Positions 9,661 to 9,895 of a DNA stretch of 64,000 nt are shown piece after piece (positions within the stretch are counted from its first letter, which is position 1; each line of letters starts with the position of its first letter). Both the position numbers and the translations under genes were made by a program. The stretch lies in the IMG/VR virus record IMGVR_UViG_3300032030_002018; one strand, 5' to 3'. The notes beneath the pieces were generated by a model. It made no database searches. It was given only the letters and a program-made list of their open reading frames with translations, and was not told the DNA's origin. Source of the DNA: a virus (taxonomy: Duplodnaviria > Caudoviricetes).

Positions 9661-9895
9661 AAAAAATGCAACAGAAAACTGACAAGTTCTGTTGCATTCT
9701 CTGATGTTGTCTAAATCAGCACCAACATCTGTGGTGACTTATGATTCTTTGTCCCTACAAGGTGTTTCTTTTTCCACCTTAATCAGAAGTAGGGTAGCGG
9801 TCTAATCTCCGCACAGATACCATCCTATCTTGGCCGCGGTCCTCAGGTATCGTTAGATGTCCCTCCATCAGTATTGTTGTGCCATATTGACACAA
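9661..9895 (-). ncRNA. Candidate structured non-coding RNA (~230 nt)
   Basis: Consensus promoter at 9899-9930, terminator ATGCAACAGAA..TTCTGTTGCAT-T tract at ~9661-9697, multiple stems, no credible ORF. Confidence 0.6.

Follow-up and report, generated by a model that had tools for sequence, protein, structure and literature searches.

A probably expressed orphan RNA encoded by an uncultured T4-like jumbo phage of rumen Bacteroidota

Introduction

Does a short GC-rich segment on the minus strand of a rumen phage genome encode an RNA that works as RNA, a small peptide, or nothing of use to the phage? The segment lies at about positions 9659 to 9896 of the window, by which we mean the whole 64-kb stretch of DNA analysed here (64,000 nucleotides; bases 233184-297183 of the 334,687-bp IMG/VR virus record IMGVR_UViG_3300032030_002018). 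Coordinates are given in window numbering unless stated otherwise. The original prediction, made from the sequence, had described a stand-alone RNA of several stems with its own promoter and terminator, and had called it a novel early phage RNA.

In the virus record, the portal (Pfam Portal_T4, 6e-86) and the large terminase are of T4 type and the major capsid protein is of gp23 type; its source is an uncultured T4-like jumbo phage of about 335 kb from rumen Bacteroidota. Metagenomes of sheep and bovine guts, produced in about 15 studies, contain the stretch. A 362-aa protein encoded at 2555-3643 (+), a candidate TnpB without a PHROG family match, is 57% identical over 249 residues to a protein of a ruminal Prevotella metagenome-assembled genome (MAG). 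This relative provides a hint, and only a hint, that the host is probably of Prevotella type.

Results

The unit carries a promoter and a terminator of its own

A promoter for the unit was found on the minus strand at 9899-9938, in agreement with the original prediction. It has the Bacteroidota form, a -33 TTTG followed by a -7 TAnnTTTG, and comprises an UP-like element (TTGTTAAATAA), the -33 TTTG at 9930-9927, a 20-nt spacer containing AAATAAAT, and the -7 box TACATTTG at 9906-9899. It also carries the extended promoter consensus specific to this phage, aAaAtATTTGGtnnttTnAAATAAATTgttTACATTTG. The pattern TTTG-N20-TAnATTTG occurs at 65 sites in the genome versus 0-3 sites in shuffled genomes, and 35 of the 65 lie at 240-260 kb of the genome, in the block of tiny genes around the RNA unit. 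On a weight matrix of these sites the promoter of the unit scored 44.5 bits (median 50.2; rank 47 of 65). By this extended consensus the unit belongs with the host-sigma-type "early" transcription units.

Because a promoter of this host-sigma-type class drives the dense tiny-gene block (window 5000-27000), we infer that the RNA is expressed early. "Phage", "RNA" and "novel" in the original wording held up, while "early" is read from the promoter class only. The extended consensus spans 38 nt (65 occurrences with a spacer of 20), is densest at window ~6800-26800 and resembles the long consensus of T4 early promoters. It was not found in five related jumbo-phage genomes searched with its 16-base core.

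For most promoters of the class (62 of 77, spacer 19-21), an ATG ORF of 30 aa or more follows within 150 nt, mostly 15-50 nt downstream; that of the RNA unit is one of the 15 that have no such ORF within this distance. Further consensus promoters without such an ORF have the last G of the -7 box at window 7002(-), 14163(-), 19398(-), 69024(-), 77430(-) and 80626(-), and these six are candidate non-coding or minigene units.

The terminator proposed for the unit was likewise present. It lies at 9659-9696 on the minus strand (UGCAACAGAA / UUCUGUUGCA), 4 nt after the closing helix P1 described below, and consists of a 10-bp stem (9696-9667) with a 10-nt loop followed by eight U. A simple terminator scanner missed it solely because of the 10-nt loop. 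From the geometry and orientation of promoter and terminator we infer both the strand and the ends of the transcript: a predicted primary transcript of about 237 nt, starting at the A about 3 nt past the -7 box (about 9896) and ending with the U-run (about 9659). The core of the unit has 45.3% GC versus 34.1% for the genome, at the 98.5th percentile of 179-nt windows, which bears out the claim that it is GC-rich for this genome. Structural RNAs usually stand out by a high GC content where the genome is AT-rich.

The unit is an isolated minus-strand insert in a lineage-specific block

The neighbouring units on both sides are encoded on the plus strand and have their own promoters (9046 and 9973). 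The RNA unit is therefore an isolated insert on the minus strand with nothing downstream for it to regulate. Further along this strand come only another promoter, a second terminator that works in both directions (9559-9590), and the 3' ends of plus-strand genes that run towards the unit. Promoter-bearing repeats lie on both flanks, and the nearest tRNA-like genes are about 3 kb away.

The segment 9559-9590 contains a 13-bp GC-rich hairpin with T-runs on both strands, and is predicted to terminate both the plus-strand genes at 9106-9536 and a minus-strand mini-unit starting at about 9615. Fourteen such mini-units were seen in the window, at 5009(+), 5879(+), 7310(+), 10699(+), 26738(+), 26460(-), 24922(-), 22924(-), 20939(-), 18420(-), 15716(-), 12771(-), 9625(-) and 7209(-). 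Each is laid out as a terminator T-run, a consensus early promoter, 45-60 nt that often hold a small hairpin, and an A-run; their transcripts are predicted to start with GUG(U/A)CAG. A mini-unit is followed either by the second promoter of the next gene, about 90-120 nt downstream, or by the bidirectional terminator of a convergent gene. One of them, with its -7 box at 9625-9618, stands directly behind the terminator of the RNA unit. Some hold tiny frames, such as AUG-UAA at 9604-9599 or a Lys-rich one of 13 codons.

The whole early block is specific to this lineage: both the neighbouring proteins and the extended promoter consensus are absent from the related phages examined. For the proteins beside the unit (three of 82, 104 and 225 aa, and a MutS_I protein of 91 aa), no relatives were found in IMG/VR or among 20 related jumbo-phage records. 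The last of these, at window 10798-11073 (-), is a stand-alone protein made of the mismatch-binding MutS domain I only (Pfam 1.8e-17). An early promoter of its own precedes the gene, and the protein may act on host mismatch repair as a decoy or inhibitor. An accessory block with lineage-specific neighbours would be typical of cargo for host take-over or anti-defence.

The unit shows no sign of coding for a protein

As originally described, the unit contains one ORF of 5 aa and one of 29 aa, and the latter is its longest ATG frame. Neither has the usual leader: the A-rich "aaccaataaaaacag..." leader of the neighbouring genes is absent from the RNA unit. The 29-aa ORF (MEGHL...PTSD) begins with the AUG at 9868, inside the stem P1. 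All three natural variants that fall in it are non-synonymous (V19A, G12S and R11C), which at n=3 is indicative and not conclusive. The 47-aa open frame that holds this ORF has no relative among 5.8 billion protein clusters, and no open frame of the unit matches Pfam (E<=1). On an ENA contig with matching gene order, the gene calls leave a gap of 494 nt empty at this place. With no relatives that share the reading frame and every variant changing the peptide, the claim of an RNA rather than a protein withstood this comparison, and the unit is most likely non-coding.

RNA from the locus occurs in two metatranscriptomes

Over 9500-10100, we compared the contigs of two metatranscriptome runs, each from a study of its own, with those of two DNA runs. 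In the sheep RNA run, one contig corresponds exactly to 9707-9879, without differences and with an Illumina adapter abutting 9879. In the bovine RNA run, one contig of 173 nt corresponds to 9706-9878. Both ends of the two contigs thus fall within 1 nt of each other, while the DNA contigs extend past both of these ends (e.g. 9659-10015). RNA contigs of two studies that end alike where DNA contigs continue are a weak hint at a discrete RNA over 9706-9879; such assembled contigs carry neither the strand nor the true ends of a transcript. In the sheep RNA run, 9668-9688 and 9899-9961 are uncovered, which fits a discrete transcript and was counted as no evidence.

Of the contig ends, 9879 lies in the 5' hairpin P0, and 9707 immediately precedes the 3' strand of P1. 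We considered them as processing sites and rejected this, since the contig of a neighbouring mRNA in the same sheep library likewise starts late, at 10036, with a -7 box ending at 10004. On account of that late start, we attribute both the distance of 14-17 nt between contig and predicted start and the absent terminator to loss of transcript ends in the library. A joint of 9656 to 9972 in a contig of the sheep run was not taken as a deletion variant either; it links two promoter repeats, and its most likely origin is a different locus. Taken together, the unit is probably expressed.

Five helices are robust in the predicted fold

The minus strand contains all helices of the original prediction, at the predicted positions or directly beside them. 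The 5' hairpin P0 (9877-9895) is formed by UUGUGUCA (9895-9888) and UGGCACAA (9884-9877) around a loop AUA, with a pairing probability near 1. It contains one U-G pair, which would be a C-A mismatch if read on the plus strand. The multibranch body (9701-9871) is closed by P1, CUGAUG (9871-9866) with CAUCAG (9706-9701), which encloses all inner arms and was found in the minimum free energy (MFE) structure, in the centroid and in all 15 suboptimal folds listed.

Two inner elements occur in every fold and in the centroid. One is the hairpin GCGG-AGAUUAGA-CCGC (9797-9812), with GCGG at 9812-9809 and CCGC at 9800-9797. The other is a long arm (9753-9794) in which CCCUAC (9794-9789) / GUAGGG (9758-9753) stacks on AAGGUG (9780-9775) / CACCUU (9764-9759), with an 8-nt bulge UUCUGAUU (9788-9781) and an A-rich loop of 10 nt. 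Together with P0, P1 and the terminator, these are the robust parts of the ensemble.

The remaining elements have competitors. The GAUACC arm (9816-9851; GAUACC 9851-9846 / GGUAUC 9821-9816) has a 24-nt loop containing the palindrome CCGCGG (9839-9834) and a GGCC, but the region is ill-defined and the helix competes with other pairings. The 3' domain (9710-9744) has two rival folds: CACCA (9736-9732) / UGGUG (9724-9720) together with UCUAA (9857-9853) / UUAGA (9714-9710), or one interrupted hairpin of 12 bp over 9744-9710. UCUAA/UUAGA is therefore present with a competitor. The proposed GAUU/AAUC pseudoknot has 4 bp only. Stretches predicted to be unpaired are the 8-nt bulge, a 16-nt linker and the 24-nt loop.

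The complete model of the original prediction gave -38 kcal/mol as drawn and -41.2 after constrained refolding, and is near-optimal in comparison with the MFE of -44.1. The whole unit folds better than most shuffled sequences (z = -2.6; 3 of 200 shuffles fold as well), to which the terminator contributes. The 174-nt body does not go beyond shuffled sequence (z = -1.24; 26 of 200 shuffles fold as well). For the multi-stem RNA that had been claimed, this means that the helices are there, but that the fold of the body is not above chance and several helices have competitors. Beyond the five helices, the predicted secondary structure is offered as a proposal.

The RNA matches no described family

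The original prediction had not recognised a family, and an Rfam 15 scan, which gave no match for the RNA at the gathering score or at E<=10, agrees with its being novel. In the whole window the sole match at the gathering score among 4227 families was a tRNA-Leu at 18944-19026. At E<=10, the best match within 9500-10050 was RsaJ, with 28.6 bits versus 100 required, on terminator hairpins; the others were below 24 bits. No ribozyme family, and hence no small self-cleaving ribozyme, appeared in the scan even at E<=10. ARAGORN found no tRNA-like gene with default settings, with introns allowed, with mitochondrial models or with lowered thresholds.

Several specific candidates were also tried and rejected. 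For a tRNA or tRNA-like RNA, there is no UUCRA T-loop, and the bulge UUCUGAUU resembles the Gln anticodon loop only as a chance-expected 7-8-mer; the RNA also lacks the acceptor pairing of a permuted tRNA or of a tRNA-Gln carrying a mini-intron. A hammerhead is contradicted by CUGAUG being followed by G and not A and pairing perfectly with CAUCAG, and by the absence of GAAA after a stem II. In the same way, the "C box" of a C/D-box-like CUGAUG...CUGA is a perfect Watson-Crick stem. A TnpB/IscB omegaRNA was rejected because the candidate TnpB-like gene (2555-3643) is 6 kb away and no HEARO or IS605-type Rfam family matches. The ACAGCAAU RNA family of this genome does not include the RNA, which has only ACAACAAU, common in the genome, and no flanking stem. 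The 8-mer GGGACAAA shared with the tRNA-Tyr-like genes at 12888-13112 is chance-expected. Seven GGA versus about 4 expected are not significant for a CsrA-type sponge, and eight GAU triplets versus about 3.4 expected are too weak to interpret.

Relatives were searched for at increasing distance. BLAST and a covariance model, built from the RNA sequence and the originally predicted structure, found only the RNA itself in the phage genome. No homologue was found among GenBank phages (blastn, distant mode) or in IMG/VR (exact 18-mer). In 20 related jumbo-phage records (portal identity 61-72%), BLAST and the covariance model found none, and the best model matches lay inside long ORFs. A pattern with loops fixed and stems free gave three chance matches in JGI metagenomes, without similarity outside the pattern. 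In the family of the ruminal Prevotella MAG, 151 genomes searched with the covariance model and 301 with BLAST gave chance-level matches only; the BLAST matches were 18-34 nt long and the best model match lay inside a 996-aa ORF. The RNA is a real and probably expressed, lineage-restricted orphan that matches no described family.

A natural variant keeps a loop palindrome self-complementary

Natural variants of the RNA body from several studies are at least 97% identical. The positions of the three mapped variants, all outside the robust helices, are compatible with the model, though not significantly so (probability by chance about 0.2). In the bovine RNA contig (depth 2.9), the palindrome CCGCGG of the large loop reads CUGCAG. 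Positions 2 and 5 are changed together, and the 6-mer stays self-complementary. The original palindrome is predicted to be partly open, with an unpaired probability of 0.26-0.83. This change may reflect loop-loop dimerisation or, equally, two deaminations of a methylated CpG on opposite strands, and we take it as a lead and not as evidence.

The phage genome avoids several short palindromes, with 1 GATC versus about 948 expected, 35 GGCC versus 249, 1 CTGCAG versus 25 and 105 CGCG versus 206, while CCGCGG, GAATTC and TTCGAA occur about as often as expected. Such counts suggest pressure from host restriction systems. GGCC is kept in the loop of the RNA despite its about 7-fold under-representation genome-wide, which is mildly unexpected, as is the CTGCAG of the variant.

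Discussion

The unit is very probably a genuine non-coding RNA gene. Its promoter class, its terminator, the absence of a coding signal, its presence in two RNA libraries and the lack of a known family were shown here. As we picture its action, host RNA polymerase would read the Bacteroidota-type promoter early in infection, start near 9896 and stop at the hairpin-U8 terminator near 9659. The resulting transcript of about 237 nt would carry the 5' hairpin at one end and the terminator hairpin at the other. Between them would lie a GC-rich body that is closed by the 6-bp P1 and branches into at least three or four arms, whose loops are rich in A or in GC. The RNA would stay untranslated and would not control a downstream gene. 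It would instead act in trans as a stable protein-binding decoy (sponge) or as a scaffold during host take-over or counter-defence.

A decoy or scaffold for a host or phage protein is our preferred reading, and we hold it tentatively. None of the neighbouring proteins has an RNA-binding domain. Mimicry of a host RNA is unsupported, because the RNA has no significant match in the sampled host-family genomes and no likeness to tRNA.

Alternatively, the RNA could be a trans-acting base-pairing small RNA that represses or activates host mRNAs through an open loop or linker, like prophage RNAs of the DicF/IpeX type. A stand-alone promoter and terminator as in classical small RNAs would suit this, and so would the long stretches that are modelled as unpaired. 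However, there is no significant complementarity to the phage's own genome, where the longest complement elsewhere is 13 nt and the number of 12-mers is within the range of shuffled sequences. The same counts speak against an obvious antisense RNA. The matches in the 301 host-family genomes stay at chance level, in a search that cannot detect short seeds, and with its about 237 nt and high GC the RNA is larger and more elaborate than most seed-type small RNAs. We consider a base-pairing RNA rather unlikely.

The unit could also be a transcribed cassette without function, in which a strong early promoter and a terminator surround captured or decayed DNA that is harmless and hence kept. Its absence from all 20 related phage records, the unexceptional fold energy of the body, and the flanking repeats, whose promoters could allow cassettes to be shuffled, are consistent with this. 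On the other hand, variants from several studies remain at least 97% identical over the body, the GC content is high in an AT-rich genome, and a GGCC is retained where the genome avoids it. The source of a captured fragment is also not visible, since the unit holds no protein-like frame and no likeness to host DNA. There is some chance that the cassette is functionless, but we regard it as small.

A self-associating structural RNA, in which the loop palindrome CCGCGG would let two or more copies kiss, is improbable. Kissing through a loop palindrome is known from the HIV-1 dimerisation loop. In the present RNA the double change to CUGCAG restores self-complementarity, for which the estimated chance is about 1% given the first change. 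The palindrome is also modelled as partly open, and the variant creates CTGCAG, a word that the genome otherwise avoids (1 versus about 25 expected). But the variant comes from a single contig of depth 2.9, and both changes are C-to-T at one CpG on the two strands of a palindrome, as expected if a methylated site is deaminated twice. It is accordingly a distant prospect that the RNA stands for a new class of small self-assembling phage RNAs, whose kissing-loop oligomers would act early in infection, either as a scaffold built from RNA only or as a decoy that binds a defence or RNA-processing protein of the host in a multivalent way.

An mRNA for the 29-aa peptide is very improbable. Its frame is open, and translation in Bacteroidota does not need a Shine-Dalgarno sequence, but each variant alters the peptide, in one case from Arg to Cys, and the peptide has neither a homologue nor a Pfam match, an AUG that is buried in P1, no leader, and no gene call on the ENA contig. 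A riboswitch-like cis element, with a P1-closed aptamer and a terminator that controls read-through, is scarcely credible: the promoter, the P1-closed junction and the terminator 4 nt on do have the architecture of a transcriptional riboswitch, but there is no gene to control on the downstream minus strand, where only a promoter, a second terminator and convergent gene ends follow, and no Rfam aptamer matches.

We compared the RNA, for which a protein-binding decoy or scaffold is the preferred reading, with known phage systems. Species 1 and 2 of phage T4 (rnaC/rnaD) are structured non-coding RNAs of 120-140 nt or more with host-polymerase promoters, and we know of no function for them. The rumen-phage RNA is likewise a structured non-coding RNA of a T4-type phage with a promoter of the host-polymerase type. 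The T4 RNAs lie inside a tRNA cluster and are cut from a tRNA precursor; in contrast, the rumen-phage RNA has a promoter and a terminator to itself, is about 3 kb away from tRNA-like genes and has no tRNA features. It has no detectable sequence relation to GenBank phages.

The pRNA of phage phi29 (RF00044) is an RNA of about 174 nt that is expressed from an early promoter, diverges fast, and forms a protein-bound scaffold that self-associates through loop-loop pairing. The rumen-phage RNA resembles it in size and, as far as its promoter class indicates, in early expression. Unlike pRNA, it has no Rfam match, and the phage has a T4-type portal and large terminase; packaging motors of the T4 type need no RNA. 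The loop pairing of pRNA involves two different loops, whereas the candidate here is one palindrome.

RNA-based counter-defence by phages, such as the solitary CRISPR-repeat RNAs (Racr) and tRNA-mimic decoys, uses short stand-alone units whose RNA occupies a host protein. The rumen-phage unit is also a short stand-alone transcription unit with an RNA product, for which the occupancy of a protein is only proposed. These decoys copy a host RNA, whereas the rumen-phage RNA resembles nothing in the 301 host-family genomes, nor a tRNA.

ROOL and GOLLD are phage- or prophage-linked non-coding RNAs of unknown function that form RNA-only homo-oligomers, and ROOL was first discovered in rumen samples (PMC12286853). 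They differ from the rumen-phage RNA in their length, which is 2.5 to 4 times greater, in their wide conservation, and in being recognised by Rfam models, none of which matches the latter; and self-association of the rumen-phage RNA is, compared with theirs, speculation from one variant.

In conclusion, the RNA is an orphan small non-coding RNA encoded by a phage; it belongs to none of the families compared and is closest in kind to the small stable RNAs of T4. By itself it opens no long-standing question, being confined to one phage lineage and having an action that cannot be deduced from sequence. Compared with phage proteins, phage non-coding RNAs have been charted much less, and those from phages of Bacteroidota, the dominant phylum of gut and rumen, hardly at all. 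The unit provides a clean case, with a defined promoter class, a terminator, no coding signal and support from RNA libraries. If it is functional, it would add to the view that giant phages use RNA besides protein for host take-over.
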